A stretch of DNA of 64,000 nucleotides from a phage. The translations under genes and the position numbers were made by a program. The stretch lies in the NCBI GenBank assembly GCA_012646185.1, contig GCA_012646185.1_4706.1. One strand, 5' to 3'. The notes below the pieces were generated by a model. The model worked only from the letters and a program-made list of their open reading frames with translations. It had not been told where the DNA came from and searched no databases. Shown piece after piece: positions 1-37,099 of this stretch (position 1 is the first letter of the stretch; every line of letters begins with the position of its first letter).

Positions 1-102
1 TGTCGTGAGGAAGGTTGTGTAACATCTGGTTCATACGCTTTTCGAACAAGGGATAATCATCCCAGTAGCGTGATCCTGATACCCCTACACGATAGGGTTC
101 GC

Positions 103-423: not shown

Positions 424-435
424 TTATTTAGCCTT

Positions 436-1926: not shown

Positions 1927-2024
1927 TGGGTAAAGACTCCTTCGATTCTTCGACTAATTCTTAGTGTTCAGAGAATAACTATTTTTAGTTAAGACTGACA
2001 ACCGCTATTTCCACGAGGACAATC

Positions 2025-2867: not shown

Positions 2868-2875
2868 CATAATAA

Positions 2876-2911
2876 CCCACCCTACTACCCCGTTAAGGGC
2901 GGTAGGGTGGG
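2876..2911. terminator. GC-rich hairpin between convergent genes (CCCACCCTAC...GTAGGGTGGG)
   Basis: 10-bp perfect stem read directly from sequence, lying between the stops of the 2025..2867 and 2919..3350 genes. Confidence 0.55.
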
Positions 2912-2918
2912 ATAAGGT

Positions 2919-3350
2919 TTATTTGCCGTATAGTTGTACCACTCGTTGTGTCGTAGGAACGCAGACTCTTACCAGAAGCTTTTTAATCTCCTGACGAATC
3001 GTTGCTTTATCGTCATAATAAAGCCATGGCGGAACGCGTTGCATTATGCACTGCACGGCTTCATCGTAGTTCGTCGTCCCATTAAGTAACGTCTCACTAT
3101 CCAGATCTTTCCACGCAGTAATACCAAGTCGCGCAGCAAACATCAACGCTGAAACCGACTCAGCTATCTCCAATCGCTCATTCATATCCGCAAGACCTTT
3201 TAGCATGATGTAATTATCATCATGCTGATGTAAGGTGCCATACAAACTTCCGAAGAGAAGTATACGTTTAGCTTTTGCGGTTAAGAGGAACGATAGGAGA
3301 GCGTGTTTCAACGGTTGTTTCTCACGTTCTACCTGTTCGACCATCACCAT
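2919..3350 (-). CDS. hypothetical protein (143 aa)
   Basis: ATG with GGAG SD; 4 nt downstream of the RNase H gene stop. Confidence 0.55.
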   Translation of the reverse strand: MVMVEQVEREKQPLKHALLSFLLTAKAKRILLFGSLYGTLHQHDDNYIMLKGLADMNERLEIAESVSALMFAARLGITAWKDLDSETLLNGTTNYDEAVQCIMQRVPPWLYYDDKATIRQEIKKLLVRVCVPTTQRVVQLYGK

Positions 3351-3353
3351 TGA

Positions 3354-4880: not shown

Positions 4881-4930
4881 TGTAAACCTCATTAATCATT
4901 GTCCGTATGATAGCCCAAAGTTGTACGGTA

Positions 4931-5482
4931 TTACCGATTACCGTCGGTTGACGTCGGTTGATCGCGATTGACTTTCATTGACCGCAGTTTTCCACCGTTA
5001 ATTACGCATTGATTGCGTTGTTTGGCGGAGGTCAGACTATTGCAGACGTAATAGGTATCGATAAAACGTTCAACGCGTTCTTGAAACTCCCTCTCGTCAA
5101 CTTTATCTTTTTCAAAGGTTCGTAACGCTCGATCAACCTCACCCTGGAGAATCCGGTTCTGTTCAACCATACTGTCGATTAAACGGCCTCGTACTTCGTT
5201 CGATGTGTAAAGTTGACGAATCAGTTCTCGGTTGGTGTCTCGCGCATAACGCAATGTTGCATTTTCCTGACGTAAACTACTCACGTCAGCCATCAAGGTA
5301 ATGATTTTTTCGCCAGCGAATAACGTCACGATACCCAATACGATGAAAAAGCCCGTAATCAAGAATATCGAGGACTGTCGAGCTCCATCTCGACGATAGC
5401 GTGTGGGCGGTCGCTTACTTCGCCGAAACAACTCGCGAAGAAAAGGGAAAAGCCAGGGCAACGCCTTGAGTGTAGTAAACAT
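4931..5482 (-). CDS. membrane-anchored coiled-coil protein (183 aa)
   Basis: Internal ATG with AAGGA SD chosen over the unsupported upstream start; hydrophobic segment IFLITGFFIVLGIVTLFAG followed by heptad-rich charged region. Confidence 0.5.
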   Translation of the reverse strand: MFTTLKALPWLFPFLRELFRRSKRPPTRYRRDGARQSSIFLITGFFIVLGIVTLFAGEKIITLMADVSSLRQENATLRYARDTNRELIRQLYTSNEVRGRLIDSMVEQNRILQGEVDRALRTFEKDKVDEREFQERVERFIDTYYVCNSLTSAKQRNQCVINGGKLRSMKVNRDQPTSTDGNR

Positions 5483-5536
5483 GCGTGTGTCCTTGATAGT
5501 ATGAAATTTCCAATACAACTTAACCGAGGACGTCGA

Positions 5537-6877
5537 ATGATTAGTATTTTTGGTTTTTATACGTACAAAGGGTACGCTAATAACCACCCAAAAACCACGG
5601 CGAAATTCGGTGAGTTCAGTCAGCACAGTGCTACGTTCAGTCGCGAAATCGGCATCTATACCAACACGGCGTACGCACGTACGACCTTATTAGTGTTGAA
5701 TGCCGAAAACGAAGCTGGTGAAGCACAAACGCTGAATGACGACACCGCAGGCCGTATTCTTCAGGTTGGTCAATGGTTGCTGGAAAAAGCCGCATCGGGC
5801 GAAATCCAGGAAGACCGAGACCAGGTTATCAGTTACCTAAAAGACGACTTCACAACGTATCTGGATTCTATCGACATCCCAACACCCACCACCGATGGTA
5901 CAGTCTATCTACCGGCGTGGATCAGTTTCAAGATAACCGCCACCGGCGATGTCGTCAAGATTTGGTTGTCTGATAGCGTATTCCAAAGTCAATATCCAAA
6001 ATACGAATATGAAGTCGTTCCCCCTGTTCCTAAGGATCAGTTAGATACCTTCTTCGAAGATCTGGCAACATTGAAGAAACTGGTTGACAGTCGAAGCAGC
6101 GAGAAACTGACCGAAGAAATCAACGAGGTGCGCGACCAATTCCCAGACACACAATTGTGGACGAAAACCTATAAAGCGTACGATTACACCGACGATTCGA
6201 AATACATTAATACCGATTGGACGGTGATTATCTACGGTGCAGCAGGTAACAACATTGATAATATCAAGGAGTTCCTGCAAAACTGGATTCTTAGCAATAG
6301 TACGCATGGACGTCCAGACTGGGAAATCGTTCTGCCGGATCTTTTTATCCCGACAGAACACATCTTCATTCCAATCTGGAACCGCCACAGTGCGCCAGAA
6401 ATGACCAATCAGGCACGTATCTATAGTCCTATCTTCGATGATTCGTTGATGGATACCTACCTGAAAAACTTTGCTGATGGTTACGGCGAAACCGCCGAAG
6501 TCCGTAAATCGCTTCAAGCGGTGCCGACGTTGTGGCGCTCGATCGGTTTCTTAAGCGTTGGTAACTCACGTAACCGAGACGGTAAACTTAAGTTCTACGA
6601 TCGTTGGCCGCAATACGCGCTCATCAGCACAACCAGCATCGATATTAACCGTATCGATGATGCGACACGTGAATTCATCACGTTCACTTACGAAATGCTG
6701 AAACTGGCAGAATCGCTGACCGAAGACGACCCGGTACCGTTGGGTTATAGTCGTGTTACGCGTGGTAGCAATAGCTTCTTAGCGAAAAGCCACAACGATG
6801 TTCAGTATCTCTTCTTAACAAAAGAAGCGTTCCTGAAGAAAATGCCGGATGAAGCCGACACGCCTGTTGGAGGTTGA
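5537..6877 (+). CDS. hypothetical protein (446 aa)
   Basis: ATG at 5537 has GAGGA SD (the ATG at 5501 has none); stop lies 3 nt before the next gene start. Confidence 0.55.
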   Translation: MISIFGFYTYKGYANNHPKTTAKFGEFSQHSATFSREIGIYTNTAYARTTLLVLNAENEAGEAQTLNDDTAGRILQVGQWLLEKAASGEIQEDRDQVISYLKDDFTTYLDSIDIPTPTTDGTVYLPAWISFKITATGDVVKIWLSDSVFQSQYPKYEYEVVPPVPKDQLDTFFEDLATLKKLVDSRSSEKLTEEINEVRDQFPDTQLWTKTYKAYDYTDDSKYINTDWTVIIYGAAGNNIDNIKEFLQNWILSNSTHGRPDWEIVLPDLFIPTEHIFIPIWNRHSAPEMTNQARIYSPIFDDSLMDTYLKNFADGYGETAEVRKSLQAVPTLWRSIGFLSVGNSRNRDGKLKFYDRWPQYALISTTSIDINRIDDATREFITFTYEMLKLAESLTEDDPVPLGYSRVTRGSNSFLAKSHNDVQYLFLTKEAFLKKMPDEADTPVGG

Positions 6878-6879
6878 TT

Positions 6880-7506
6880 ATGGCTGTAACACGCATGACG
6901 CCAAGTCCCGGTGCGGTCGGGGTATTCACAGTATCAGCGCCGTTTACCGTTGGTGCGTCAACGCTATATACCGTTACAGCGTTGCGAAGATTCAGCGAAG
7001 TCATCGGTAGTGGAATCGATCTATTTGCGGAACTGTACGAACCGTTATCAATAGACAAATCCACATTCGAAGCGCATCTCGAAGCGAATGCTTATCTCGT
7101 CACGTTGCAACCGGATTACGGTGCACCCGTACTGGTACCTGATACGTATATCACGTCGTACCCAAAGAACGATTCCTTGCGGTATCGTCGCATTATTCTG
7201 GGTATCGATTTCGGGCCTCTTCCTCCCGGTCTTGACCTTTCGTATTTAACAACGATATTGAAAGGTAAGGCTAGTGATATTCTTGGTGTCGAACCTGAAG
7301 TTAAAACGATGGAAATCACTCTCGATGATACCGTTACTCAGGAACAACATCAGATAAACGAAGCCTGTCGTCAGGCTGCGATAAAAGAGCGGGATACCAT
7401 TTACGCACGCTGTGAAACGCAAGAGAAGCAGATAACGGCTTTACTTGCAACCCAAAAGCAACTTATTAAATTGCTTCAAGACGCCGGTATTAATCCGACA
7501 CCTTAA
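6880..7506 (+). CDS. hypothetical protein (208 aa)
   Basis: ATG with GGAGG SD embedded in the end of the upstream gene (the track start at 6874 is TTG). Confidence 0.55.
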   Translation: MAVTRMTPSPGAVGVFTVSAPFTVGASTLYTVTALRRFSEVIGSGIDLFAELYEPLSIDKSTFEAHLEANAYLVTLQPDYGAPVLVPDTYITSYPKNDSLRYRRIILGIDFGPLPPGLDLSYLTTILKGKASDILGVEPEVKTMEITLDDTVTQEQHQINEACRQAAIKERDTIYARCETQEKQITALLATQKQLIKLLQDAGINPTP

Positions 7507-7512
7507 CATATT

Positions 7513-7544
7513 CCCTCCTCCTTCCCTGTTGGGTTGGAGGAGGG
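7513..7544. terminator. conserved CT/GA hairpin (CCCTCCTCCTTCCC-TGTT-GGGTTGGAGGAGGG)
   Basis: Member of the intergenic hairpin family; lies between convergent genes. Confidence 0.6.
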
Positions 7545-7558
7545 TTATGCCGTCAAGC

Positions 7559-7602
7559 AAAAAAAAAAATGATAGTCACAGGCTCTCCAATGAAGGAGAG
7601 CC
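7559..7602 (-). terminator. hairpin GGCTCTCC-AATGA-GGAGAGCC plus T11 run on the minus strand
   Basis: Downstream of the 7615..8316 stop in minus orientation; the T-run starts ~11 nt after the stem, so this is a non-canonical intrinsic terminator at best. Confidence 0.4.
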
Positions 7603-7614
7603 GTGACCGTCAGT

Positions 7615-8316
7615 TTAAGATGCAGATAATCTCGCGTACTTCTGGCGAACATGGTTCTTACGGCGAACTTCGTCGTCCTCGTCACGCCATTCGAGGTAAG
7701 CAACGAATCGACGTAACTGCGCCGCCGTCATCGTTGACGAGTGGTCTTCTACGTCTAGAACAACGTAACGAACGTCACCAACACCATCACAATCAACGTA
7801 ACTGAATACCAAAAGACCATCACCGTATTCAACGATGGTAACTTCGAATCGTTTATCGAACAAATAAAACAGTTCCGATTCAATGATCATCGGAATGACG
7901 CACATATCAGCACGATTGAGGATTTCCATCATCACCCGTAACGCGCGAGGAGTATGGCGAGCGAACTGGTCGTTAAAACGTTGTTTCATCGCTTGTTCCA
8001 CGCCATCTGTTTTTGTTCCAAACCACGGACGTACTACAGATTTCGGTGGTGTAAGACGAAAGCGATATGCTTGTATAAACAACAGAATATCAGCGACGTT
8101 GGGAAATTCTTCCTGGTCTTCGTATATCTTGCGGATAATATCCGGAATCGTAACCATCAAGTATTTCTTATCGCCTCCCACTTTCTCGAGATTAGCAATA
8201 TGCCCTTCTACCACCGGCTGGTAAATGAAATTATACCAATGACGGTATCTTGCAGTACGTTGGTAGTTTGGGATAAAATTAAGAATAATACTCACTGCGC
8301 GTTTTAACGGGTTCAT
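7615..8316 (-). CDS. hypothetical protein (233 aa)
   Basis: ATG with AAGGA SD. Confidence 0.55.
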   Translation of the reverse strand: MNPLKRAVSIILNFIPNYQRTARYRHWYNFIYQPVVEGHIANLEKVGGDKKYLMVTIPDIIRKIYEDQEEFPNVADILLFIQAYRFRLTPPKSVVRPWFGTKTDGVEQAMKQRFNDQFARHTPRALRVMMEILNRADMCVIPMIIESELFYLFDKRFEVTIVEYGDGLLVFSYVDCDGVGDVRYVVLDVEDHSSTMTAAQLRRFVAYLEWRDEDDEVRRKNHVRQKYARLSAS

Positions 8317-8330
8317 CGAAAGGATCCTTC

Positions 8331-8744
8331 TTATGTTTTAATATGCACATCGTCAATCCCCTCGGTAATCCAGCCGATGGGAAGGACAACCGTTGTTATC
8401 CTGTTATGGGTGTAGTGGTTGAGAAAATGGAAATAGTAATTTTTGTTAGACTGTTCGATCCGTAGGTCGAGGTGCGCGTCTTCAGGTAACCGTAACCAAG
8501 CACCGTACAGCTCATTAAACTTACGCTGAATTTTACCGGGGTTCATTGGAACCCCACGACCACGACGATGTAGCTGACGTAATGATTCAATCAAACACTC
8601 AGAGATACCCGTTGTCGTTCCGTTATCGCTTGTATCAATAACGATGAACTCTCGTGACCCACGACCGAGATAAAACCCAGCGACAAAAGCTGCAGCAACA
8701 AAAATTATCGTACCGATACCAATATACCAATAGTAAGTATCCAT
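8331..8744 (-). CDS. membrane protein with N-terminal TM helix (137 aa)
   Basis: ATG at 8744 with GTGAGGT SD (track start 8765 is TTG); hydrophobic YIGIGTIIFVAAAFVAGFYL. Confidence 0.5.
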   Translation of the reverse strand: MDTYYWYIGIGTIIFVAAAFVAGFYLGRGSREFIVIDTSDNGTTTGISECLIESLRQLHRRGRGVPMNPGKIQRKFNELYGAWLRLPEDAHLDLRIEQSNKNYYFHFLNHYTHNRITTVVLPIGWITEGIDDVHIKT

Positions 8745-8755
8745 AACGACCTCAC

Positions 8756-9283
8756 TTATACCCAATAGTCGGCAAGCGGTTTTACCTTATTAATGGGCAA
8801 CTGTACTTTACCGATGTTCTCTACATCCGCATCAGCGTAGAGAACAATTTTATCATCGTCTCTTTCCCAACGAATAGTAAATCGACCAGGAAGAAGATTA
8901 CTCTGTTCAAGAGACGCAGTAACCTGCTGCGTCAAAACAGACAACCAAGCAGGCATCAATGTTGCAATATCTAAGTCATTTGACCACTCAGCACGTTGCT
9001 CCACTGGGCGTAACATACGTTCGACGGTGCGTTGAACCGTTGCGGTGATATAGCCTTTATCTTCGTCACTGATTGGATCAGGACGAGACACAAAACGTTC
9101 AGCAGGTTTACGGGAAATATGCTCATGCAAATCGATGAGTGGTGTTGTCATAGTACTCGCTCCATCAGAATGTAATTGGGTAACCCGTAGGGTTGTCTGC
9201 ATGCTATTCAGAAGCGCAAAAGCGCCATAAACAACAACGATACCAAGTATAGCCAAAACAGAAATCATTAACGTGTATTGCAT
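8756..9283 (-). CDS. membrane protein with N-terminal TM helix (175 aa)
   Basis: Second ATG has GGGGAG SD at proper spacing; hydrophobic LMISVLAILGIVVVYGAFALL. Confidence 0.5.
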   Translation of the reverse strand: MQYTLMISVLAILGIVVVYGAFALLNSMQTTLRVTQLHSDGASTMTTPLIDLHEHISRKPAERFVSRPDPISDEDKGYITATVQRTVERMLRPVEQRAEWSNDLDIATLMPAWLSVLTQQVTASLEQSNLLPGRFTIRWERDDDKIVLYADADVENIGKVQLPINKVKPLADYWV

Positions 9284-9319
9284 TGTCATCTCCCCCTACA
9301 TACGCATCTTGAAGATCGG

Positions 9320-9379
9320 TTAAAAACAACAAAAGAAAAAACGATATAAAGCAAGGTCCTCTGATATCAGAGGACCTTG
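9320..9379 (-). terminator. 13-bp perfect-stem hairpin (CAAGGTCCTCTGA-TA-TCAGAGGACCTTG) followed by T-rich tract on minus strand
   Basis: Immediately downstream of the 9386..10042 stop; canonical intrinsic-terminator architecture in minus orientation. Confidence 0.6.
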
Positions 9380-9385
9380 GATCAA

Positions 9386-10042
9386 TTAGCTTGCAGCTTC
9401 TTCATTTGTATCAGGTTTGCTTCCCCCTAACAAACCGTCAAACAGACCCGTATGTTTCAGGTAGAAGAGAGCGATAGCGCCCATTGCTGCTGCGCTCGTC
9501 GCCGTTAACGCAACCCCGGCACGATACTGCCATTTACGGTCAGGCTTTTGATCGAGAGCCATACGACGCATGTATTCAGCCTCTGCTTCATTCCGATGAA
9601 TTTCGGATTCAGCCAAGCGGGCTAAGGTATCGCGGTCAAGGTTATCATAACGTACGTTCATGGTGGTTTCCTCTTGTTTGGAAGTTGATTGCTTAGTGGA
9701 TTCTTGGTCAACAGTCGTTTCAGATGGTTCAAACGGCTGGTTGTTCATTTTCTGATCTTTATTGGTCATGATAGACTCCTTCAATTTTTGAGACGAAATT
9801 GATTTAAACCATCGTGGATGACGGTATTCAGTTTTACATGTGCAGTTAAGTTTCTCGTGCAGGAAAGCGTAAAAACGTTTTGCGCCTACACGTAAGGCTT
9901 TCAGCATTACCCATCCACGAGCACTCAAACGGTGTAGCTGTTGCGGTATGTCGAGTTTCCTAGCCAAGCGAAAGTATCTTTCAATCACTTCGATAGGAAA
10001 CCATTGTTGTTCCACATCGGTGAGACTGAAAGTCTTATCCAT
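9386..10042 (-). CDS. C-terminally membrane-anchored protein (218 aa)
   Basis: ATG start; C-terminal hydrophobic segment GVALTATSAAAMGAIALFYL; start codon ~24 nt from motif copy 1. Confidence 0.5.
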   Translation of the reverse strand: MDKTFSLTDVEQQWFPIEVIERYFRLARKLDIPQQLHRLSARGWVMLKALRVGAKRFYAFLHEKLNCTCKTEYRHPRWFKSISSQKLKESIMTNKDQKMNNQPFEPSETTVDQESTKQSTSKQEETTMNVRYDNLDRDTLARLAESEIHRNEAEAEYMRRMALDQKPDRKWQYRAGVALTATSAAAMGAIALFYLKHTGLFDGLLGGSKPDTNEEAAS

Positions 10043-10066
10043 GAATGAAATCTCGCTGGCTTACTT

Positions 10067-10093
10067 CACTTAAGTAATATAGCCGTGAAAAAT
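10067..10093 (-). promoter_or_regulatory. conserved 25-nt motif copy 1 (plus strand TCACTTAAGTAATATAGCCGTGAAA)
   Basis: One of four near-identical intergenic copies; minus-strand reading contains TATATTAC. Confidence 0.45.
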
Positions 10094-10192
10094 GTTGGAT
10101 TAAGTTAAATACCGCAACCGCAGCTAATTTTATAGGCTTTTAGCCTAAACCAATCATCTTCGGAATCATCATCTTTGAAACAGGAATCTATC

Positions 10193-11014
10193 ATGGAAAA
10201 AGTATTTGTTTGTAAGTTGTTTACTAACGGCAATAGCCAACCAATGTACCTGACCGATCCAGTTCTAGGTAATCGGAACAGCACCGTATTCAAAGAAGCT
10301 ATCGAATACGCTAAAAATAAAGCCGTGAGAACACTGACGTCCGATGACTGTATCAACGGTATCACGTGGGCAGAGTTATTCGGTGATGCTGTTAGACACT
10401 TCGTTCGGGACGCAAGAAAACGGGAAATCTGTCTCACGACTATCGTTGTGCGTGAAAATGCAGAAATTTTATCAAACGTTTTGGTTGATTTTAATGACGT
10501 TTGCGTGTTTAATCCAGAGAACACGTTTGAACAATACCTTACTGCCCTGAACAACCAGCTCGGTAAAGATATTCATCCCGAATTCGCCAAGTTAACATAT
10601 CAGTTACTTTTTGACGACGACGATCCAAATACGAATATCGATACCAGCTTATCGCCCCTGGTAAAGAAATACGGATCGGTTCTCGCTACGGCAACACCCA
10701 CCACCGATGGCGGTTATGATATCGAATTGGATGGTCCATTAAAAGAACAAGAGCCTACTGGGGTTAGGGCGGTACATCACAACCTCGTCGTTAAATCTGA
10801 TGGGTGCGATGAACATTACGCTATGATAAACGATGAAAACAATTACCGTTTAAGTCAAGCGATTGGTGTTCTACGCTATACCGAACCCACTGTTGTAGAC
10901 GATTATACATCGACAACAACGCACACCACGTGTTTCATTTTCATCTATCCCAATGAAAGTGTGTACATTACTGACTGCTACGGCAATACCGTAGATAGCT
11001 TACGTCGTTACTAA
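10193..11014 (+). CDS. hypothetical protein (273 aa)
   Basis: ATG at 10193 with AGGA SD (track start 10175 is TTG); followed by intrinsic terminator. Confidence 0.55.
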   Translation: MEKVFVCKLFTNGNSQPMYLTDPVLGNRNSTVFKEAIEYAKNKAVRTLTSDDCINGITWAELFGDAVRHFVRDARKREICLTTIVVRENAEILSNVLVDFNDVCVFNPENTFEQYLTALNNQLGKDIHPEFAKLTYQLLFDDDDPNTNIDTSLSPLVKKYGSVLATATPTTDGGYDIELDGPLKEQEPTGVRAVHHNLVVKSDGCDEHYAMINDENNYRLSQAIGVLRYTEPTVVDDYTSTTTHTTCFIFIYPNESVYITDCYGNTVDSLRRY

Positions 11015-11020
11015 TCGTCG

Positions 11021-11048
11021 AGCCTGTCCTTCGGGGCAGGCTTTTATG
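11021..11048 (+). terminator. intrinsic terminator (AGCCTGTCC-TTCG-GGGCAGGCT then TTTTAT)
   Basis: GC stem with TTCG tetraloop and 3' T-tract, 7 nt after the stop codon. Confidence 0.65.
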
Positions 11049-11116
11049 CTGTTAAATATCAGGAATAAGAATTAACAAAATAGGAAAATGGTGTGAATAT
11101 AACACAAAGGAGGGAG

Positions 11117-11239
11117 ATGATCATGTTACTCATTCTAATGGAGAGAGCATTGCTGGCGGGTATCTGCGCATTCTCTGTTAAACACGCTGTTGCTATCATG
11201 GCTGAAGAAAGGCGTAATACGCATAATGTATTACGCTGA
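11117..11239 (+). CDS. small hydrophobic peptide (40 aa; MIMLLILMERALLAGICAFSVKHAVAIMAEERRNTHNVLR)
   Basis: Unannotated short ORF with strong SD AAGGAGGGAG at ideal spacing; one predicted TM-like segment. Confidence 0.35.
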   Translation: MIMLLILMERALLAGICAFSVKHAVAIMAEERRNTHNVLR

Positions 11240-11711: not shown

Positions 11712-12341
11712 TTATTCAACAAACCCTGCATTCAACAGATTGTCGTAAACACGATTAGCGACATCAACAGGAGAATGTGTGTTACTGGTGTCTATACACA
11801 ACGTTTTCGCATCGCCGAGATAGTCCATAAAATCCATGTAACGATAACGTCGTTTATTGAATGTCGCTTCATCGATGTTATCAAACATCTGATGTTTAGC
11901 GTGACGAACACGGAACCGTCTTAAATACGTAGGATAGTCAATATCCAGATAAACATAGTAAGACGGCATGATAATCGACGGTAGGTTCGGCAACAACGCG
12001 TCAAACAACTTAACGTTAGCGTCATTAACCTGGTAAACATACGTCGAAGCAATCGAACGATCGCTAAGCACAGTCTTCCCTTCGTTAAGGGCTGGATGAA
12101 TCACCTTGTTGAAGAGATGATTACGTTGCGACATCATCGCCAATAGTTCAGTTTCTGGATCGAATCTGTTTGTTGGTGTTTGGTCTTCCAGGATAAGTTT
12201 ACGAATGGCTTCTCCGTAGAGAGTACCACCGGGTTCACGTACAACACAAACATTGTTTAAACGACTGTGTAAAGACGAGATAACCGAACTCTTTCCTGAA
12301 TAATCCAGACCTTCAATAACGATATATTTATTACGAGACAT
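11712..12341 (-). CDS. tmk: thymidylate kinase (209 aa)
   Basis: P-loop IVIEGLDYSGKSS, TREPGGT-like VREPGGT, DRS...STYVYQ motif; ATG at 12341 with GGAG SD (track start 12353 is TTG). Confidence 0.85.
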   Translation of the reverse strand: MSRNKYIVIEGLDYSGKSSVISSLHSRLNNVCVVREPGGTLYGEAIRKLILEDQTPTNRFDPETELLAMMSQRNHLFNKVIHPALNEGKTVLSDRSIASTYVYQVNDANVKLFDALLPNLPSIIMPSYYVYLDIDYPTYLRRFRVRHAKHQMFDNIDEATFNKRRYRYMDFMDYLGDAKTLCIDTSNTHSPVDVANRVYDNLLNAGFVE

Positions 12342-12357
12342 TCCCCGCTCCAATTAA

Positions 12358-13536
12358 CTACTTCGTTTTCGCCGTTATCGGCTGCGATACTGTAATCTCG
12401 ACCCGATCGACATCGGTACGTTTAACGATGATAAGGCTGCGTTCATCACCGAATGGTTCTGAGATCTTACAAGCCTCTTTAAGATTTTCGAGAATCGTGC
12501 CATGGGGTTCAAACACCGCAAAACCGGAACTAGCGTCGATTTTTACTAAATATACACGCACATTGTTTACGGTAATGGTGTCATCCGTCTTGAACCCACA
12601 GCAGGAGGGTAGACAGAACTGGCCGGGAATACCGGCTACGTATGCCTCACCACCGAACATTTCTATTAACGTCACCGGTTTAAATGTTTTCTCTGGGAAA
12701 GCATTATTAAGGATATCGTTTCCATTCACAAACCAGATCGTCACTTTATCTTCAGAATACGCTAGTCGGTATGGTTGAGTTGCGGACGCTTGCGCTTTAT
12801 GCTGGTTAAATAATTTTGATTTTGTCGCAATCACAGCACGGCCTTGGGCGTCAAAGTACAGAACTTCATACCCAACACATCCGATAAACACGCGACGGTT
12901 ATTAAGTTCCGGAATTCTGACTAATAATGCTTCACCGTTGTATCCAGTAGGAACAATACCACGTAGGATGATAGATTCGTTATTCAATACTGAGTTGTCC
13001 ACGACGATGCTTCGCATTACCGCTGGGGTTACTGTTTTATCTGCGGTAGGTTCAGGTTGCTCAGCAATACGGTCAAAAGGTTCGATGGATACCATGGGAA
13101 CGAAGTATTCAACTATATGCTTGTTTTCAGCACCAACGTCCATGACGGTGATCTGCAAACGCGTAGCATCCGAATTCAATGCTTGTTTCACACGTTCTGC
13201 ATTAGGAGTATCACGGTCAATATGAATCAAGGCTTTTACCACACCGTCGTCTTCCAACCATCCCGTTAAAACGCGACCGACGATATCATTCACATCACGA
13301 ATCGGGAAGCACAGTTCAGCACCATCGAGCACCGCTTCGATTTTACTGCTAATGACGGGCACCTTACCGTCGTTAAGATGCGCCAGCAGACCGGTTACTG
13401 CACCTTCACTAACCGGATGTTTTGTCGTCGTACTGACCAACGGTACGATAAAACGATCTTCGCTGTATTTCTCTGCACCACAGATAACCGGGACTTGAGG
13501 ACAATAATCAACCAGCCCCCATTCAACAGTATTCAT
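12358..13536 (-). CDS. hypothetical protein (392 aa)
   Basis: ATG with AAGGA SD; no recognisable motifs. Confidence 0.6.
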   Translation of the reverse strand: MNTVEWGLVDYCPQVPVICGAEKYSEDRFIVPLVSTTTKHPVSEGAVTGLLAHLNDGKVPVISSKIEAVLDGAELCFPIRDVNDIVGRVLTGWLEDDGVVKALIHIDRDTPNAERVKQALNSDATRLQITVMDVGAENKHIVEYFVPMVSIEPFDRIAEQPEPTADKTVTPAVMRSIVVDNSVLNNESIILRGIVPTGYNGEALLVRIPELNNRRVFIGCVGYEVLYFDAQGRAVIATKSKLFNQHKAQASATQPYRLAYSEDKVTIWFVNGNDILNNAFPEKTFKPVTLIEMFGGEAYVAGIPGQFCLPSCCGFKTDDTITVNNVRVYLVKIDASSGFAVFEPHGTILENLKEACKISEPFGDERSLIIVKRTDVDRVEITVSQPITAKTK

Positions 13537-13568
13537 AACGTTTTCCTTCTTGGGTTTTGTACGTGTTG

Positions 13569-14183
13569 CTAACGGCGTTTCGTACCGACCTTCCCATTTC
13601 GATGGTCATCAAGAATACGCCATTCTTCGAACAGGAGTTCAGCAGCGAAATAACCTACAGCGATGCTGTCTATCGCATGCTCATCAAGATTCGCTAACAC
13701 AACACCATTCCTGGGTGTGATGTTCATGAGGTTCAATACTTTCTGGCGAACATCGTCCTTACCAACACGGGACGTCATGATCCCAACGGCGCGTTTTGCG
13801 CTTCGGTTATCAACCCCTAAGAAAGACACCGTAGGGTCAAAATCGATAACCGTTGTCTGAATCGCTGAAAACAGCTCGCTGAGCGCCATACCGCTTTGCT
13901 TGAAACGACCGATGAATGGCGTCTCACAAGCGACCGCTTGCGGCTGGTACTCTTGCAATAACGTTGTCAGCGAACGACGGTGTTCTTGGATACGTGCGGC
14001 ACGATTACCGTATCCAAGCGCAATATCGCCATCGGGATCATATCGACGTGAAGCGTGCCATGTCCCTGCATACAGCAGTTCAATATCTTCGACACGCACG
14101 TCCAAACGTAGTAACGACGCACCGAGTGTATCGGTGCCAGGGTCGATTGCCAGAATATCGTAAGCGTATTCTGGTGGGATCAT
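13569..14183 (-). CDS. RuvC-like Holliday junction resolvase (204 aa)
   Basis: N-terminal ILAIDPGTDTLG and C-terminal DEHAIDSIAVG resemble RuvC catalytic acidic motifs; ATG overlaps upstream stop as ATGA. Confidence 0.7.
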   Translation of the reverse strand: MIPPEYAYDILAIDPGTDTLGASLLRLDVRVEDIELLYAGTWHASRRYDPDGDIALGYGNRAARIQEHRRSLTTLLQEYQPQAVACETPFIGRFKQSGMALSELFSAIQTTVIDFDPTVSFLGVDNRSAKRAVGIMTSRVGKDDVRQKVLNLMNITPRNGVVLANLDEHAIDSIAVGYFAAELLFEEWRILDDHRNGKVGTKRR

Positions 14184-14992
14184 GGTGTTACAACAGCCTC
14201 TACTGACCATGGGAAGGTTTTCGCAATAACACCTTCCAGGAAGCGTTCAACTTCCGATTGCTCATACACCGAAAGCTTTTCAAACGGCGTTTGGTCTTCG
14301 GTTAAACCTACCGCATGAATAGGACCCAGGTCTTTAACCAGGGTAACTTCGCCTTTAACGCCTTCGCGCTTAACGATGATCGCGTGGTCATTAACCTTAG
14401 GATCGTACAGCACGCGCATCATGGTTACGGCGTCATCCGGTTCATGACCGAAATCGATGGCAACACGAGCATTCGTCCCTTCATCATCCAGAAGCTTGCT
14501 CAGCGCTTTACAACGGTCTTCAATCCAATCCAACGCAACCACGGTTTCTTGGCGTAGCTGAACCTCAACTTCTTTTCCTTGTTCGTCGATACGTTTCACG
14601 GTAACAAAATCGTGTAATAGGCGGTCAGGAAGGAGGGAAGCAATAAGCTCAACGTCGGGTTCAGGTTTTTCGTTTTCCAGAATGATAGTCGCTTGTGCGT
14701 CCAGATGTTCTTTAAAACGGATGTAACGTGTTAATCGCAGAACTTCATCTTGGGATTTTGCGTCTTCGGGAATAATCTCCGTCATGACGTTATAAATCTT
14801 TTCAGCGAACGTCGGAATTACGGTGATTGTAATTCGTGCTGGTGTACCACGCTCCTGGTACTCATCGGCTAACTTCTTCGCCATCCCGTTAAAATAAGTC
14901 TGGAGAAACGGTTGCTGCGTTAAAAACATTTTCTCCAGATCGGAATAGCGATGCTTGCGTGCATGGCCTAGCTTCTTCATGGGCTTTTTCAT
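14180..14992 (-). CDS. hypothetical acidic protein (270 aa)
   Basis: ATG with AAGGA SD (track start 14995 is TTG); no phosphoesterase (Mre11/SbcD) motifs seen. Confidence 0.55.
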   Translation of the reverse strand: MKKPMKKLGHARKHRYSDLEKMFLTQQPFLQTYFNGMAKKLADEYQERGTPARITITVIPTFAEKIYNVMTEIIPEDAKSQDEVLRLTRYIRFKEHLDAQATIILENEKPEPDVELIASLLPDRLLHDFVTVKRIDEQGKEVEVQLRQETVVALDWIEDRCKALSKLLDDEGTNARVAIDFGHEPDDAVTMMRVLYDPKVNDHAIIVKREGVKGEVTLVKDLGPIHAVGLTEDQTPFEKLSVYEQSEVERFLEGVIAKTFPWSVEAVVTP

Positions 14993-15013
14993 CAACAGAA
15001 ATCCTTATTTGTC

Positions 15014-17470
15014 TTAAATAATCGTGACGTGTTCGTTATATGTTTCAGGGAGAATGATGTTCGTTTTATCAAGAACCATACACTCGGCTTTACGGAACGA
15101 CGCATGGTTGATAACATAGTGGCTGATGAACCACACCTGGCTTACGCGGTGACCATCAACCAAACGACGAACAAAATCCATGGCATTAGATTGGTGCTGT
15201 GGATCAAATGTTGATGCGAATTCGTCTAACATCAACGGATAATCCGTGAACCCTTTGTAATGCATCATCGCGATGATGAACGCGATATTGATAATTTCCT
15301 TTTGTCCCTTACTCCCATAAACAATATCTTTTCGCGGTGTCGGATACTTCTCAGTTAAAAGCGGAAAACGATAGTTCAATCCTTGCGCGTCGATAGCACA
15401 CGGGAGTATCTGAAGTTGGTATTCCCAAATACTTGCAATGATGCCGTTCATGTACTCAACGAACGCGTTGATGGGACCCGCGATTGTTTCGGCAATCAAT
15501 CCGTTAGATGGACTTAACTCATCCAGAACAAGTTGTGCGTAACTGAGCTGTTCTTCCACCTCTTTTTGTGTCGTTTCCAACTGAGCCAGAAGCTGCTGGT
15601 CGGTTTTAGCTTCCTGTAACTGCTGTTCGACATGACTTATTCGGCGAACCGTATCAGACATCGCAGCACGTAACGATTTCGTGTAGAGGTGTTGCAGATA
15701 CTCTAACCACAGTTGCGTTAACGCTTTATCGCTGTTATCAGAACGTACCTGATCTTCCATAATCGCCGTAATGGTTTCCAATCTACCTTCCGTGGCTGTG
15801 ATAGCTTGTGTTAACCGCTCAACGGTTGTTAACAACTCTGTCCTGTTCTTATAAAGCAATTCTCGACGTTGCTGTAACGGTTCAACATCAACCGCTTGTA
15901 CCCGTTCGAGCATACCTTGAAGATGCTTCCGTTCCTGTTCGGCTTGTGTGTAACGCGCGAGTTTCTCAAACGCAAGCAACCAGTCATTAATGATTCCAAT
16001 GCTGCGGAATCCTAAACCGTTTTTACGTCCTTCTTCCAGCAGATTGTCCCACATGGGTTTAATGGCGTAATAATCTTTCGTCCAACGTGTTAACTGACGA
16101 TGCTGTTCCATCCAGAGCGTATAGCGCTGAACCTTCTCACTAAGCTCGGTTAACGATTTCTCCTGTTCTTCAACCCAGGCACGGCCCTTCTGAATACGTT
16201 GTTCAATACCCGCTTTGCTGGTCTTTTCTGTCTCACCAACATGAAAGCGATAATTGCATTTTGGACAGCTGGTCTGGGGTTGATGATTCAGGTGGTCAAG
16301 ATGCGCTTCCAAATCGGCTAACGCATGTTTCGCGTTACGCAAACGCATTCTTGCCGCCTCTTCCTCCTTGATGTAAGCTTCAGCATCGTAAACATGATAG
16401 GTGTTGTCGGTATCAATCCATTCTTGCAGTAATTCCGTTAACGGAGCCTGAACTTGCGTGAGCTGTTGTAAACAAACCGCAGCGTCCAGATTCATTGTTA
16501 AAAGCTCACCTGGATGATCTTGCTGAAGTTGTTCGTCTAAACGTGCAATGCGGGCTTTAATTTGATCGATATCACCTTCGCCAGACTGTTTCAACTGGTC
16601 AAGGATATTATCGATACCCAACAGCTCGTCAACCTGACTTTCGAGTTTTGCATTCGCATTCGCGAGTTGCTCTCTTAGTTCAGCCAGATTCTGCTGTTCT
16701 TGTTGCGATGTTCCTCCTTGGTAACGAACAACCGCACGAAGAAGCTCACGATTAAAATGATGGGCGCGTTGTGCGGATTCCAGAAGCTGTCGTTGATCAA
16801 CATCGCTATCGAATAACGGCAATCCCATCATCGCTTCGAGCGCTGAGCGTTGCTGTTTTAACTCTGCTTCCAATCCCTGGTGGTCGGTGCCGGTGTATTT
16901 CGCTTCGATGCGCTGTGATGTTTCAACCAACTTATTCAGTGTATGCTCATTCACCGCTTTCAGTGAACGTACTTGTTGCTTAACCACCTGAAACAACTCG
17001 AGTGCGTAATCGACGTTAACCGGACATATCTGCGTTAATCGTTCGCGACGTTTCATCGGTCCCATTTCGGTGAACTGGTAAGCCGTTTCGTAACCTAACA
17101 ACAAACGAATAGTGTCATCATTAAGTTCGAAATGTTCTTCGATCAGTTTCCACTGAGCGGGTTGTGTGCCACCACCATTCAGGTTCTCGCTGTCGTTAAC
17201 GTAGAACTCATGCTTAAACCCTTTTTCTAAACGACTGATAAGACGGTATTGCTTATTACGGTGTTCGCAGCGGTACTCGTAATACCCGTCTTTATCAAAA
17301 TCGGCACGCTCAGGAACGGTCGGATACAGCAAAGGCAATAGACTACTCTTACCCGAACCGTTGCTGCCTAAAATGAGTTGTACGGGATTATCTGGCCGGA
17401 TGACCAGCTCCCGAATCATCCCGGTATCAAAACGATTGAATCCACGTAAGTGGAGATAGGTGCATCGCAT
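15014..17470 (-). CDS. SbcC/Rad50-like SMC-family ATPase (818 aa)
   Basis: Walker A GSNGSGKSS ~36 aa from the chosen ATG, long heptad-rich middle with CPKC zinc-hook-like motif, signature-like SKGQKE, Walker B LMLDEF, H-loop FISHY. Confidence 0.8.
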   Translation of the reverse strand: MRCTYLHLRGFNRFDTGMIRELVIRPDNPVQLILGSNGSGKSSLLPLLYPTVPERADFDKDGYYEYRCEHRNKQYRLISRLEKGFKHEFYVNDSENLNGGGTQPAQWKLIEEHFELNDDTIRLLLGYETAYQFTEMGPMKRRERLTQICPVNVDYALELFQVVKQQVRSLKAVNEHTLNKLVETSQRIEAKYTGTDHQGLEAELKQQRSALEAMMGLPLFDSDVDQRQLLESAQRAHHFNRELLRAVVRYQGGTSQQEQQNLAELREQLANANAKLESQVDELLGIDNILDQLKQSGEGDIDQIKARIARLDEQLQQDHPGELLTMNLDAAVCLQQLTQVQAPLTELLQEWIDTDNTYHVYDAEAYIKEEEAARMRLRNAKHALADLEAHLDHLNHQPQTSCPKCNYRFHVGETEKTSKAGIEQRIQKGRAWVEEQEKSLTELSEKVQRYTLWMEQHRQLTRWTKDYYAIKPMWDNLLEEGRKNGLGFRSIGIINDWLLAFEKLARYTQAEQERKHLQGMLERVQAVDVEPLQQRRELLYKNRTELLTTVERLTQAITATEGRLETITAIMEDQVRSDNSDKALTQLWLEYLQHLYTKSLRAAMSDTVRRISHVEQQLQEAKTDQQLLAQLETTQKEVEEQLSYAQLVLDELSPSNGLIAETIAGPINAFVEYMNGIIASIWEYQLQILPCAIDAQGLNYRFPLLTEKYPTPRKDIVYGSKGQKEIINIAFIIAMMHYKGFTDYPLMLDEFASTFDPQHQSNAMDFVRRLVDGHRVSQVWFISHYVINHASFRKAECMVLDKTNIILPETYNEHVTII

Positions 17471-17584
17471 GCTATGATAATCCTTCTTCGATACCTTCTG
17501 AACCACGGGTTCAGAATGCGAAGCTGAAGCCATACTTCAGCGTTATTTTCTATATCGTTATTTAAATCAGTAGGAGATTACAGC

Positions 17585-18673
17585 ATGAGCGACCTGGCAA
17601 CAGACAATCGCACAAAAGGGAGTCAGCTAGCTCCAGACAACAACGTAAGCGTTTTCCGTATCTATGCCTTGGGTACTGTTGCTGCCGACTTTTCCAATAA
17701 AAGTCTGGAGGAAGATCCTAACCAGGCGCTGGAGGTCTTTCTTGATGAGATGATGTCAGGCGCTGATGGGAAAGTTGAAGCGGCGGGAAGCGTGAAAGAA
17801 GTCAGTGCAACAGACGCTCAAGGGAACAGCTATACGGCGAAAGCGGCAACAACAACCAGCGTACAGTGTTATTGGTTACCTTTCGGTAGTAACCGGATGA
17901 CAGCACCTAACTTGAGGAAAGGTCAACGTGTGGTGGTCTGGCGTACCGCCGATGAAGAACAACTCTACTGGCAGCCCAAAGGAGGGGATAGTGAGCTGAT
18001 GACCATGGAATCGGTTATCCTCACCGTCAGCGCACGTCCTAGCGCTAAGAAGGACCGTAAATCGATTTCAACGGAAGACTGCTATTACCTAATGGTTGAT
18101 ACCTTCCTCAAGAAAGCGGTTATCGGTACAAGCGCACAGCTTGGTGAAGTTACCCAAGTCTACATGGAACTTAATCTGGACGAGGGTTACCTACAGGTTG
18201 CGGACAGCGTCCATCAAAATCTGTTGTTACTCCATTTTGTCGAGCATATGCTGCGTTATCAAAATCAGGATGACAGCATCATCGACGTGACAAAAAAGAA
18301 CATCACATTCCAATGCGAGGATACGCTCAAAGCAATCGCTAAGAACGATATCCGAATGAAAGCAAAAAATATTTATACCGAATGTGAGAACTTTGAACGT
18401 ACCAGCAAAACAGAAAGCGTTACGAGTCAGAATGTTTCTTTGAAGTGTGATCGTTACACCGCGCAAGTATCAGGACAGACCACGTTTAAATGTCCGAATA
18501 CGGTATTCACTGGAGCTGTAAGCTTCACAGGTGAAGACGGAAACACGATGACGTTGAATGGAAACTTCATACACATCGCAGGCTCTTGGCGTTCACCAAC
18601 CGGAACAAACGTATACACCCACGATCACGGCGGTGTAGATCGTGGTAGCGGTCGCACAGACCCGTTCCAATAA
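17585..18673 (+). CDS. hypothetical protein (362 aa)
   Basis: ATG with AGGAG SD; lone plus-strand gene inside a minus-strand block; followed by hairpin. Confidence 0.6.
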   Translation: MSDLATDNRTKGSQLAPDNNVSVFRIYALGTVAADFSNKSLEEDPNQALEVFLDEMMSGADGKVEAAGSVKEVSATDAQGNSYTAKAATTTSVQCYWLPFGSNRMTAPNLRKGQRVVVWRTADEEQLYWQPKGGDSELMTMESVILTVSARPSAKKDRKSISTEDCYYLMVDTFLKKAVIGTSAQLGEVTQVYMELNLDEGYLQVADSVHQNLLLLHFVEHMLRYQNQDDSIIDVTKKNITFQCEDTLKAIAKNDIRMKAKNIYTECENFERTSKTESVTSQNVSLKCDRYTAQVSGQTTFKCPNTVFTGAVSFTGEDGNTMTLNGNFIHIAGSWRSPTGTNVYTHDHGGVDRGSGRTDPFQ

Positions 18674-18699
18674 ACAAAAGAAAAAGAAATGCTATATAA

Positions 18700-18734
18700 C
18701 CTCCTTCCCTAGCCGTCAAGGCCGGGGAAGGAGG
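18700..18734. terminator. CT/GA hairpin variant (CCTCCTTCCC...GGGAAGGAGG)
   Basis: 10-bp stem; between convergent gene ends. Confidence 0.55.
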
Positions 18735-36214: not shown

Positions 36215-37099
36215 TTACGGTAGGATTTCTGCGCCCGTCGGGCCTGCCTTACGAGCTTCCAACGCACCAAGGTCGTATTTCAGCGTCAGCGTATCGTTGG
36301 TGGTATAAAGGTTGTGGTAAGTCGAAATCAGATCGGTAACCTGCGCGCCGACGATTTCGTTCATGTCGAAGGCTGAACCTTGACCATCATCAGCACGAAC
36401 GATTTTATCGCCAGCAGAGACCATCCCAATTTCAGAAATAACCGCGTACTCTTCACCACCTTCGGTGAGTTTAGCTACATTGAGATATTCGTTAATATCC
36501 CACGGCGTCCAAACCAAAGAGACTTTACAGCTGTAGTCGTAGTACTCTCCGGTTGCTACCAGAATTCCGGTTGTTGGGATATCCGGTCGGGCAGGGTTGA
36601 GGTTCGCGTCGGTTGGGTGCCATTCGATGGTCTGAGCGACGCCGTCGACGTATTTGGTATAACGCATGGAGCGGACAACGTTATCGAAATCGATCCGGCG
36701 ACCGTAATAACAGATATACTTTTTACCGCTTTCCAGTGTCTCAATACGACGTAACCCAAATTTAGCGCGTTCGTCTGTGGTCAAATCGTTACCAACTTCA
36801 CGCATTACGAAAGGCTTGATTTTCCACGGTGAAAGATCGCTTGCTTCGTGAGCGATCGGCATCGAGGAAGGGATACCGTTAGCGTTGCGGATGAATTCAT
36901 GACCTTGGTTGCCGATACAGAAGTAACGTACAGCAGGATTACCCTCGGGGTAAACCTTTGATTGAATCTGAAGTTTTTCATTCAAGGTGCTGTGTTCTTC
37001 CCATGCATGAGGAAGACCGAGCGTAAGGTTAGTTTGTACTTGACCGCCGATAATCGTACGGACGATACGATCGGTAGCACGGATTTGTGTAGAAGCCAT
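36215..37099 (-). CDS. hypothetical structural-module protein (294 aa)
   Basis: ATG with AGGAAAAG SD; only weak similarity to the flanking paralogs. Confidence 0.6.
   Translation of the reverse strand: MASTQIRATDRIVRTIIGGQVQTNLTLGLPHAWEEHSTLNEKLQIQSKVYPEGNPAVRYFCIGNQGHEFIRNANGIPSSMPIAHEASDLSPWKIKPFVMREVGNDLTTDERAKFGLRRIETLESGKKYICYYGRRIDFDNVVRSMRYTKYVDGVAQTIEWHPTDANLNPARPDIPTTGILVATGEYYDYSCKVSLVWTPWDINEYLNVAKLTEGGEEYAVISEIGMVSAGDKIVRADDGQGSAFDMNEIVGAQVTDLISTYHNLYTTNDTLTLKYDLGALEARKAGPTGAEILP

Follow-up and report, generated by a model that had tools for sequence, protein, structure and literature searches.

The SbcC/Rad50-like ATPase encoded in the 64-kb stretch of phage DNA analysed here (the window) very probably does not lack its Mre11/SbcD partner: the nuclease is encoded at a distant, conserved locus beyond the window, and the 270-aa protein encoded next to the ATPase is lineage-specific and no substitute nuclease. 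The window comes from a close relative of Escherichia phage Goslar (96–98% nucleotide identity), a nucleus-forming jumbo phage of the Chimalliviridae. Positions 1–7569 map onto Goslar 229,734–237,302 at 98.4% nucleotide identity, and positions 12300–18700, which include the locus discussed here, are 96.3% identical to Goslar. The genes of interest are listed in Table 1; those from SbcC to thymidylate kinase (Tmk) form a co-directional cluster that ends with Tmk.

Table 1. Genes of the SbcC–RuvC locus and related features, in window coordinates
Feature	Position	Strand	Remarks
SbcC/Rad50-like ABC ATPase, 818 aa	15014..17470	(-)	Goslar gp012 orthologue
270-aa protein, Goslar gp011	14180..14992	(-)	Goslar-like clade only
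RuvC-like Holliday-junction resolvase, 204 aa, Goslar gp010	13569..14183	(-)	Pfam RuvC, phrog_159
392-aa protein, Goslar gp009	12358..13536	(-)	between RuvC and thymidylate kinase
Thymidylate kinase, Goslar gp008	11712..12341	(-)	Pfam Thymidylate_kin 9.6e-28; phrog_761 2.1e-36
Baseplate assembly protein, PhiKZ gp164-like	17585..18673	(+)	phrog_3216 1.9e-61
phrog_3315 orthologue, Goslar gp032, virion-protein family	36215..37099	(-)	tblastn

The 818-aa ATPase

The 818-aa protein is an ordinary core SbcC/Rad50-type DNA-repair ATPase of a Goslar-like chimallivirus, and as such it is already known biology. Its start was set at the methionine of MRCTY, as in its homologues; the longer, 839-aa open reading frame extends to 17533. 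A preliminary description of this DNA had credited the protein with Walker A, zinc-hook-like, signature-like, Walker B and H-loop motifs, and all of them are present; the genes too lie at the coordinates that it gave. The ABC motifs are divided between an N-terminal lobe (Walker A GSNGSGKS at residue 35 and Q-loop Q106) and a C-terminal lobe (signature-like SKGQKE at 720, Walker B LMLDE at 746 and H-loop ISH at 782), while the zinc-hook-like CPKC occupies residues 402–405, the midpoint of the protein. Walker A, Q106, C402/C405, S720-Q723-E725, D749-E750 and H784 are invariant in six chimallivirus homologues; because these homologues share just 23–50% identity, the motifs are not chance matches.

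In profile searches the protein matched phrog_77 (‘SbcC-like subunit’, 2e-74), Pfam SMC_N came out slightly below its cut-off (39.6 bits against 40), and NCBIfam yielded sub-threshold ABC and RecF matches only. The single sequence found no match in the PDB. When a profile of the family was used, the best PDB match was P. furiosus Rad50 (1.5e-7), and residues 369–466 aligned to the human RAD50 hook structure 5gox (E 0.007). A single-sequence AF2 model was poor (pLDDT just 42) and was used for its secondary-structure pattern alone, which consists of helices at 118–396 and 419–687 with a break at CPKC. The sequence fits the long antiparallel coiled coil of Rad50/SbcC with a CxxC hook at its apex, where zinc binding is predicted.

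The ATPase is 99% identical to Goslar gp012, and its orthologues PhiKZ gp165, PhiPA3 gp190 and 201phi2-1 gp250 are 23–27% identical to it over the full length. All four resemble it in motifs, CxxC hook and pairing with a divergent baseplate gene. This gp164-like gene, which diverges from SbcC, is a conserved synteny anchor of chimalliviruses, and the divergent pair also occurs in PhiPA3, 201phi2-1, PhiEaH1, L007 and L008. Outside the family, ABC halves, a long helical insert and a central CxxC hook are found likewise in bacterial SbcCD, archaeal and eukaryotic Mre11-Rad50 and T4 gp46/gp47; the signature motif differs, being SxGQxE in the phage ATPase and LSGG(E/Q) in classical Rad50/SbcC.

The probable SbcD/Mre11 partner

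Within the window, tblastn with Goslar gp178 and RP12 ORF282 found no SbcD/Mre11 gene (best E 0.24), and no window ORF of at least 80 aa contains the phosphoesterase pattern GN[HC][DE], which is too strict for the GT(N/P)xHD of chimallivirus SbcD. The preliminary description had left two possibilities, a nuclease encoded elsewhere or a non-canonical partner in the 270-aa protein, and the Goslar reference bears out the first. Its SbcD-like gene, gp178, lies at 162.6–163.8 kb, ~66 kb from the left edge of the window when circular permutation is allowed for, and is annotated merely as hypothetical. RP12 ‘SbcD’ ORF282 matches Goslar 162,633–163,742 at 2e-49, and gp178 itself matches phrog_100 (‘SbcD-like’) at 1.8e-40 and, weakly, Pfam Metallophos (E 0.04). 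It retains the motifs DIH, GDVFD, GTNLHD, MHG and GHIH. Of these, motif III is non-canonical, with GTNLHD in place of GNHD/E, and chimallivirus SbcD-like proteins in general have GT(N/P)xHD at this point where the canonical form is GNHD/E. A profile built from gp178, RP12 ORF282 and PhiKZ gp065 and searched against the PDB returned Mre11/SbcD chains as all of its top 11 matches. In PhiKZ the orthologue of gp178 is gp065, and the gp178 gene belongs to the conserved block that includes chimallin, ChmC and PicA. The gene was observed in Goslar, the 96–98% identical reference, as the window stops short of that locus; gp178 and the co-occurrence described below together point to a predicted SbcD/Mre11 partner in the same genome.

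Homologues of the SbcC-like ATPase are present in 289 phage records and SbcD-like genes in 313, with co-occurrence in ~290–310 genomes. Counted by host genus, SbcC-like and SbcD-like records are almost equal in number, with 81/81 for Pseudomonas, 62/62 for Erwinia, 24/24 for Salmonella and 21/21 for Serratia. SbcC and SbcD of jumbo phages have been described as ‘practically universally conserved’ (PMC7824862). PhiKZ 065 and 165 belong to the core genes, and knocking them down gives phenotypes (PMC12571901), and transposon insertions in PhiKZ orf165 are not tolerated (bioRxiv 10.1101/2025.11.23.690004).

The distance between the two genes is the rule in this family. All chimalliviruses checked have unlinked SbcC and SbcD genes (PhiKZ gp165/gp065, PhiPA3 gp190/gp059 and RP12 ORF69/ORF282), and in PhiKZ, PhiPA3, 201phi2-1 and Goslar alike the SbcD-like partner is encoded far from SbcC; the RP12 pair, ORF282 and ORF69, is from PMC5468394. 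Bacterial SbcCD, Mre11-Rad50 and T4 gp46/gp47 also include a metallophosphoesterase of the Mre11/SbcD family, as does the same genome type here. In bacteria and T4, however, the nuclease and ATPase genes form an operon, whereas in Goslar they are >60 kb apart.

The 270-aa protein and the RuvC-like resolvase

The 270-aa protein had been described as lacking calcineurin-like phosphoesterase motifs, which is correct: motifs I–VI (D.H, GDxxD, GNH[DE], H, GH and GxH) were sought and are absent, and Pfam, PHROG and NCBIfam gave no family above noise and no Metallophos match at E up to 0.1. By motif and family it does not belong with the Mre11/SbcD phosphoesterases. Structure prediction, which the preliminary description had proposed as a check on a nuclease partner, gave no nuclease fold at moderate confidence (pLDDT 71.6, from a six-sequence alignment, with which a diverged known fold could escape), and the model appears to be devoid of the four-layer alpha/beta/beta/alpha phosphoesterase architecture. 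Its structural matches are weak and are to generic alpha+beta modules (FlaG, the FliM middle domain/CheC and NTF2-like proteins). BFVD contributed the hit A0A7D7F5P9. Neither the sequence nor the predicted fold of the protein suggests a catalytic role.

Unlike the SbcC-like ATPase, which occurs throughout the family, the 270-aa protein is restricted to the Goslar-like clade. An exhaustive search with HMMER, covering 1.84 billion representatives, recovered the same clade only, plus one fragment and one weak match to a repeat protein, and a literature search on Goslar gp011 (YP_009820696) found nothing. Across three lineages the protein is 44–46% identical, compared with 50% for SbcC and 39–44% for Tmk, and its basic N-terminal segment, which is strongly conserved, gives way to an acidic body. 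Judged by its conserved sequence and position, it is a real, constrained gene, and one of the Goslar-like clade only.

Several possible relatives were rejected. The protein is not a diverged phrog_3315 member (a ~290-aa virion protein), as hhalign puts the probability at 0.2% and an orthologue of that family is encoded elsewhere in the window; it is unrelated to the genes downstream of SbcC in PhiPA3, 201phi2-1 and PhiEaH1 and to the 163-aa gene of L008 (22 of 22 hhalign comparisons at or below 1%); the genes that precede RuvC in RP12 and LPKP23 showed no relationship to it; and there is no similarity to the neighbouring 392-aa protein that would make the two paralogues.

The gene begins 21 nt past the ATPase stop codon, behind an AAGGA ribosome-binding-like site, and keeps this position in three Goslar-like lineages. 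This placement, directly downstream of the ATPase, is what could suggest a non-canonical nuclease or a head-binding partner that stands in for SbcD/Mre11. Such a role is extremely unlikely, and we regard it as close to refuted: this type of genome has a bona fide SbcD-like gene, every other chimallivirus bearing the same ATPase lacks the 270-aa family, and neither phosphoesterase motifs nor those of other nucleases occur in the protein. Downstream of SbcC, other chimalliviruses have small genes unrelated to it; in the Pseudomonas chimalliviruses these are unrelated small ORFs, whereas in the Goslar-like clade the 270-aa gene follows and then RuvC.

The 204-aa product of that next gene was correctly described as RuvC-like. 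It scores 26.0 bits against Pfam RuvC (PF02075; gathering cut-off 22.2) and matches phrog_159 at 1.6e-21, and L007 and L008 share its carboxylate motifs AIDPGTD, ACETPF and LDEHAIDS. By family it is a RuvC resolvase, for which cleavage activity is predicted. With bacterial RuvC and the stand-alone RuvC of the poxvirus type it shares the RNase-H-fold family and the catalytic carboxylates; it differs from them in its length of 204 aa, its C-terminal basic tail and its overlap with the preceding orphan gene. Neither RuvA nor RuvB was seen among its neighbours, and jumbo-phage RuvC in general is likewise without them (Iyer et al., PMC7824862).

The preliminary description had suggested that these genes form a functional unit that processes breaks and resolves junctions. 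The link between the 270-aa and RuvC genes stood up: the RuvC ATG overlaps the 270-aa stop codon (ATGA), as read from the sequence, and in three lineages this stop either overlaps the start codon of RuvC or lies right beside it (as ATGA, GTGA and a 50-nt overlap). The larger unit is weakened because the adjacency of SbcC and RuvC is clade-specific, RuvC lying 12–17 kb from SbcC in other chimalliviruses.

The conserved overlap bears on whether the 270-aa protein could be a clade-specific accessory of RuvC (a targeting factor, a regulator or an import adaptor), made in fixed ratio to it by translational coupling. That the overlap persists among lineages only ~45% identical argues for such a role, as does the retention of the gene even though the slot at the far end of RuvC varies, and the conserved basic segment and acidic body are consistent with it. 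All of this evidence is nevertheless positional. Stop/start overlaps are common between adjacent phage genes, including unrelated ones, and are no proof of shared function; moreover, the 213 other phage records with a RuvC homologue have no detectable 270-aa homologue, and the gene upstream of RuvC there encodes an unrelated virion protein. We consider the accessory role rather unlikely.

Gene order offers another explanation, namely that the protein acts outside recombination, for example in host interaction or structure, and came to lie at the junction when a RuvC-Tmk block moved beside SbcC in the Goslar lineage. In other chimalliviruses RuvC is located directly behind the phrog_3315 virion-protein gene and before thymidylate kinase, and the order RuvC then Tmk is kept in PhiEaH1, Eowyn and LPKP23. 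In the window, five tblastn queries, all of them phrog_3315 members (RP12 ORF087, Eowyn gp151, SPN3US gp182, LucasX_302 and PhiEaH1 gp205), matched the orthologue listed in Table 1 with E values of 1e-34 to 1e-56, and this gene is 22 kb away; the locus is a rearrangement junction. Neighbouring slots hold orphan genes too: the slot between RuvC and Tmk is filled by the 392-aa gene in the window and by the 163-aa gene in L008 but is empty in L007, and the 392-aa protein found no family in Pfam, PHROG or NCBIfam and no match but Goslar in the phage collection. The weak, generic structural matches would also fit a role of this kind. On the other hand, the 270-aa protein is as conserved in position and sequence across the clade as the neighbouring enzymes, and evidence for an alternative role was not found. 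We give a function outside recombination somewhat less than an even chance. A scan of the cluster for sigma-70 promoters and terminators gave no excess over the shuffled expectation; chimalliviruses use their own RNA polymerases.

A possible role in recombination and its significance

By analogy with the paradigm of Rad50/SbcC and T4 gp46/gp47, the two ATPase half-sites, split by the antiparallel coiled coil, would dimerise upon ATP binding, the apical CxxC hook would link two ATPase molecules through zinc, and the head would be bound by a dimer of the Mre11/SbcD-family nuclease, here of the gp178 type. Such an SbcCD-type complex may trim DNA ends and hairpins in support of recombination-dependent replication within the nucleus of the phage, and the RuvC-like enzyme may then cut the resulting branched DNA ahead of packaging. 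The 270-aa protein would be co-translated with RuvC. Our best guess, drawn from gene position alone, is that it is an accessory or adaptor of the recombination genes, tied to RuvC more likely than to SbcC. A distinctly improbable extension is that it represents a new fold and family coupling RuvC or the SbcCD-type complex to a need of the Goslar clade, such as nucleus import or retention or the control of junction cleavage.

The apparent orphan Rad50-like ATPase is a well-known core gene of chimalliviruses, and its significance goes little beyond annotation: Goslar gp178 and its counterpart in the present phage should be annotated as SbcD/Mre11-like and not as hypothetical. The conserved 270-aa orphan, which sits between SbcC and RuvC in the Goslar-like clade and overlaps the latter, is a cheap candidate for knock-down and localisation in a phage for which CRISPRi-ART is already working. 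If it did couple RuvC or the SbcCD-type complex to such a clade-specific need, its product would add a new accessory subunit to the recombination machinery of a virus.

A Goslar-like genome and its SbcC-like ATPase

The cluster belongs to a close match of Escherichia phage vB_EcoM_Goslar (NC_048170, 237 kb), a nucleus-forming jumbo phage of the Chimalliviridae. Window 12300-18700 corresponds to Goslar 4,786-11,186 (96.3% identity) and window 1-7569 to Goslar 229,734-237,302 (98.4%). Since the first interval matches the start of the deposited linear record and the second its far end, the window spans the record's ends, and the genome is therefore circularly permuted or the record start arbitrary. 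Aligned in this way, the window takes in approximately Goslar 229.7 kb to the end of the record and continues from its start to 56.5 kb. The ATPase, the 270-aa protein and RuvC are Goslar gp012 (putative SbcC-like protein), gp011 (hypothetical) and gp010 (RuvC).

Coordinates of the features discussed (window positions unless another record is named)
Feature	Coordinates	Strand	Basis or remark
SbcC-like ATPase, 818 aa	15014..17470	-	motifs; phrog_77
270-aa protein	14180..14992	-	family-less ORF (Pfam, PHROG, NCBIfam)
RuvC	13569..14183	-	Pfam gathering score passed; phrog_159
392-aa ORF between RuvC and thymidylate kinase	12358-13536	-	without family match
phrog_3315 orthologue of the window	36215..37099	-	virion-protein family
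Goslar gp178, 380 aa, SbcD/Mre11-like	NC_048170 162,609-163,751 (Goslar locus L006 12610-13752)		outside the window; phrog_100

The ATPase anatomy claimed in the preliminary description was borne out in full: Walker A GSNGSGKS (residue 35), CPKC (402-405, the exact middle of the protein), SKGQKE (720), Walker B LMLDE (746) and the H-loop ISH (782) are all present, as is a Q-loop (Q106). None of these motifs, the CxxC included, varies when the protein is aligned with PhiPA3 gp190, 201phi2-1 gp250, PhiEaH1 SbcC and two Goslar-like homologues from metagenomes, at only 23-50% identity. The protein matches phrog_77 at 2e-74. Its Pfam SMC_N score falls 0.4 bit below the curated cut-off and a single-sequence PDB search gave no match, so we regard it as a divergent family member. 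A family profile searched against the PDB retrieved P. furiosus Rad50 best (1.5e-7), followed by SMC heads, and aligned the human RAD50 hook fragment to residues 369-466. Helical arms were predicted in a low-confidence model, of which we used the pattern alone. Assignment of the ATPase as a genuine Rad50/SbcC is supported by its motifs, by the invariant CxxC at its centre and by these predicted arms.

Moving the start 21 codons upstream, to an ATG at 17533, would lengthen the ORF to 839 aa (window 17471-17533, minus strand); the start at 17470 is favoured, as all homologues begin at the MRCTY/MKCTY methionine and the Goslar annotation agrees. Between SbcC and the baseplate gene lies a plus-strand hairpin followed by a T-run (17523-17541), annotated as a terminator in Goslar. 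The ATPase gene is present in 289 phage records. PhiKZ orf165 received zero transposon insertions (bioRxiv 10.1101/2025.11.23.690004), and the listed PhiKZ core genes that show a knock-down phenotype include both 065 and 165 (PMC12571901).

The SbcD/Mre11 partner

According to the literature, practically all jumbo phages have SbcC and SbcD (PMC7824862), and in Ralstonia phage RP12, a PhiKZ relative, they are widely separated (ORF69 and ORF282; PMC5468394). RP12 ORF282, which scores above the Pfam Metallophos cut-off, matched 313 phage records when used as a tblastn query, among them Goslar 162,633-163,742 (E 2e-49), where the gene (gp178) is annotated 'hypothetical protein'. gp178 almost escapes strict motif scans and Pfam Metallophos (E 0.04); it keeps the motifs DIH, GDVFD, GTNLHD, MHG and GHIH; motif III, canonically GNH[DE], reads GTNLHD here and GTPSHD in RP12 and PhiKZ. 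With a profile of gp178, RP12 ORF282 and PhiKZ gp065, the top 11 PDB matches were all Mre11/SbcD chains (gp178-family profile: 4hd0 7e-4, 2q8u 1.4e-3, E. coli SbcD 4lty 0.24). Judged by these comparisons, gp178 is clearly SbcD/Mre11-like. It lies in a conserved block near chimallin, and the equivalent PhiKZ block holds gp065 (gp054 ... gp065-066-067(ChmC)-068-069(PicA)).

SbcC-like and SbcD-like counts are almost the same by host genus (Pseudomonas 81/81, Erwinia 62/62, Salmonella 24/24, Serratia 21/21, Aeromonas 19/19), and PhiPA3 carries SbcD gp059 at 45.8 kb and SbcC gp190 at 176 kb. This co-occurrence and the pairs of RP12, PhiPA3, PhiKZ and Goslar indicate that unlinked SbcC and SbcD are the normal, already annotated state of the Chimalliviridae. 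The preliminary description had seen no recognisable SbcD/Mre11 beside the ATPase, and tblastn found none in the entire 64-kb window (best E 0.24). It had offered two alternatives, a nuclease partner encoded elsewhere or the 270-aa protein as a non-canonical partner, and had proposed a genome-wide Mre11/SbcD search. In the reference Goslar, the tblastn hit is gp178 (phrog_100 'SbcD-like subunit', 1.8e-40), which by the Goslar map would lie ~66 kb left of the window or ~106 kb right. The first alternative is thus upheld: as judged from reference Goslar, the partner is not missing and is encoded elsewhere, as known for this virus family.

The 270-aa protein and its neighbours

The 270-aa ORF starts 21 nt past the ATPase stop, preceded by AAGGA, and closes with ...CCATGATCC, its TGA overlapping the ATG of RuvC. 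The ATGA overlap noted earlier can thus be read directly in the sequence, and an overlap is kept in two Goslar-like lineages, as GTGA in L008 and over 50 nt in L007. Calcineurin-like phosphoesterase motifs, reported as lacking, were likewise not found, and Pfam, PHROG and NCBIfam gave no match. Of 50,697 phage records, only Goslar has the protein. When 5.8 billion proteins were searched by a word index, and again with a profile, five clusters emerged (98%, 92%, 45%, 44% and 44% identical); an exhaustive HMMER search through 1.84 billion representatives contributed nothing more than a fragment and a single marginal repeat protein. The divergent homologues lie on jumbo-phage contigs of up to 255 kb in the same order as in the window: baseplate gene (opposite strand), SbcC-like gene, 270-aa homologue, RuvC, variable slot, thymidylate kinase (Tmk). 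Identity across lineages is 44-46% for the 270-aa protein, 50% for SbcC and 39-44% for Tmk; this similar divergence argues that the gene is constrained. Conservation is highest in the first 95 residues. The N-terminus is strongly basic (MKKPMKKLGHARKHRYSDLEK, net +6 in 30 residues) and the rest acidic (whole pI 5.2); the basic segment could be a docking or nucleic-acid-binding segment.

The structure prediction suggested earlier, an AlphaFold2 model built from a six-sequence alignment, has pLDDT 71.6 (~90 for residues 20-130) and the topology alpha-beta3-alpha-beta2-alpha-beta3-alpha. Foldseek found no PDB match (best E 0.01, TM 0.2). The sole significant BFVD neighbour was A0A7D7F5P9, an unnamed 414-aa viral protein (E 2.7e-5, prob 1.0, TM 0.35), with weaker matches to uncharacterised proteins of the chimalliviruses Psa21, RSF1 and Miami. 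As motif, family, Foldseek PDB and BFVD searches revealed no resemblance to a metallophosphoesterase or other nuclease, and Goslar encodes gp178, a substitute nuclease partner for the ATPase is highly improbable, and the second alternative is not supported.

RuvC passes its Pfam threshold (26.0 vs 22.2), matches phrog_159 at 1.6e-21 and is common to 213 phage records. The idea of a functional unit is weakened: adjacency and overlap are real in the Goslar-like clade, but in other chimalliviruses RuvC lies 12-17 kb from SbcC, with other neighbours. A phrog_3315 gene (~290-aa virion protein) directly precedes RuvC in RP12, Eowyn, SPN3US and LucasX, Tmk follows it in PhiEaH1, Eowyn and LPKP23, and small ORFs unrelated to the 270-aa gene follow SbcC in PhiPA3, 201phi2-1 and PhiEaH1. 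By gene order, conservation of SbcC, the 270-aa gene and RuvC as a unit is confined to the Goslar-like clade. An accessory factor linked to RuvC is an unlikely reading of the 270-aa protein; an unrelated role is a serious contender. We commit only to a non-catalytic, clade-specific protein co-expressed with the SbcC-like and RuvC genes.

The block phrog_3315-RuvC-Tmk is conserved in other chimallivirus loci (L012-L016). In the Goslar lineage phrog_3315 remains with virion genes (in Goslar, another virion gene and a terminator follow), and RuvC-Tmk lies 22 kb away, beside SbcC. We considered the 270-aa protein as a diverged phrog_3315 and rejected this (hhalign probability 0.2%; the window has its own orthologue). 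The simplest history would be a relocation of the RuvC-Tmk block to the side of SbcC in the Goslar-like ancestor, with the 270-aa gene at the junction. The RuvC-Tmk slot holds the 392-aa orphan in the window (Goslar only among phage records; no family match); in L008 it is occupied by a 163-aa gene, unrelated to the orphan, and in L007 it is empty. It looks like a place within the cluster where insertions vary.

Proposed role and meaning

The Goslar-like genome type has a hooked Rad50/SbcC-type ATPase and an Mre11/SbcD-type protein, which occur together across the family, as well as a RuvC whose catalytic motifs are intact. By analogy with SbcCD, Mre11-Rad50 and T4 gp46/gp47, the SbcC-like and SbcD-like proteins would assemble into an ATP-driven complex for the processing of ends and hairpins, which may feed recombination-dependent replication; chimalliviruses also encode UvsX/RecA-like proteins. 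RuvC would clear junctions before packaging. The anatomy is real, but the puzzle of an orphan ATPase dissolves: the partner is elsewhere, and Goslar already has annotations for the genes. The unlinked pair is nothing new for the Chimalliviridae, and the sole unexplained item is a small lineage-specific orphan, the 270-aa protein.
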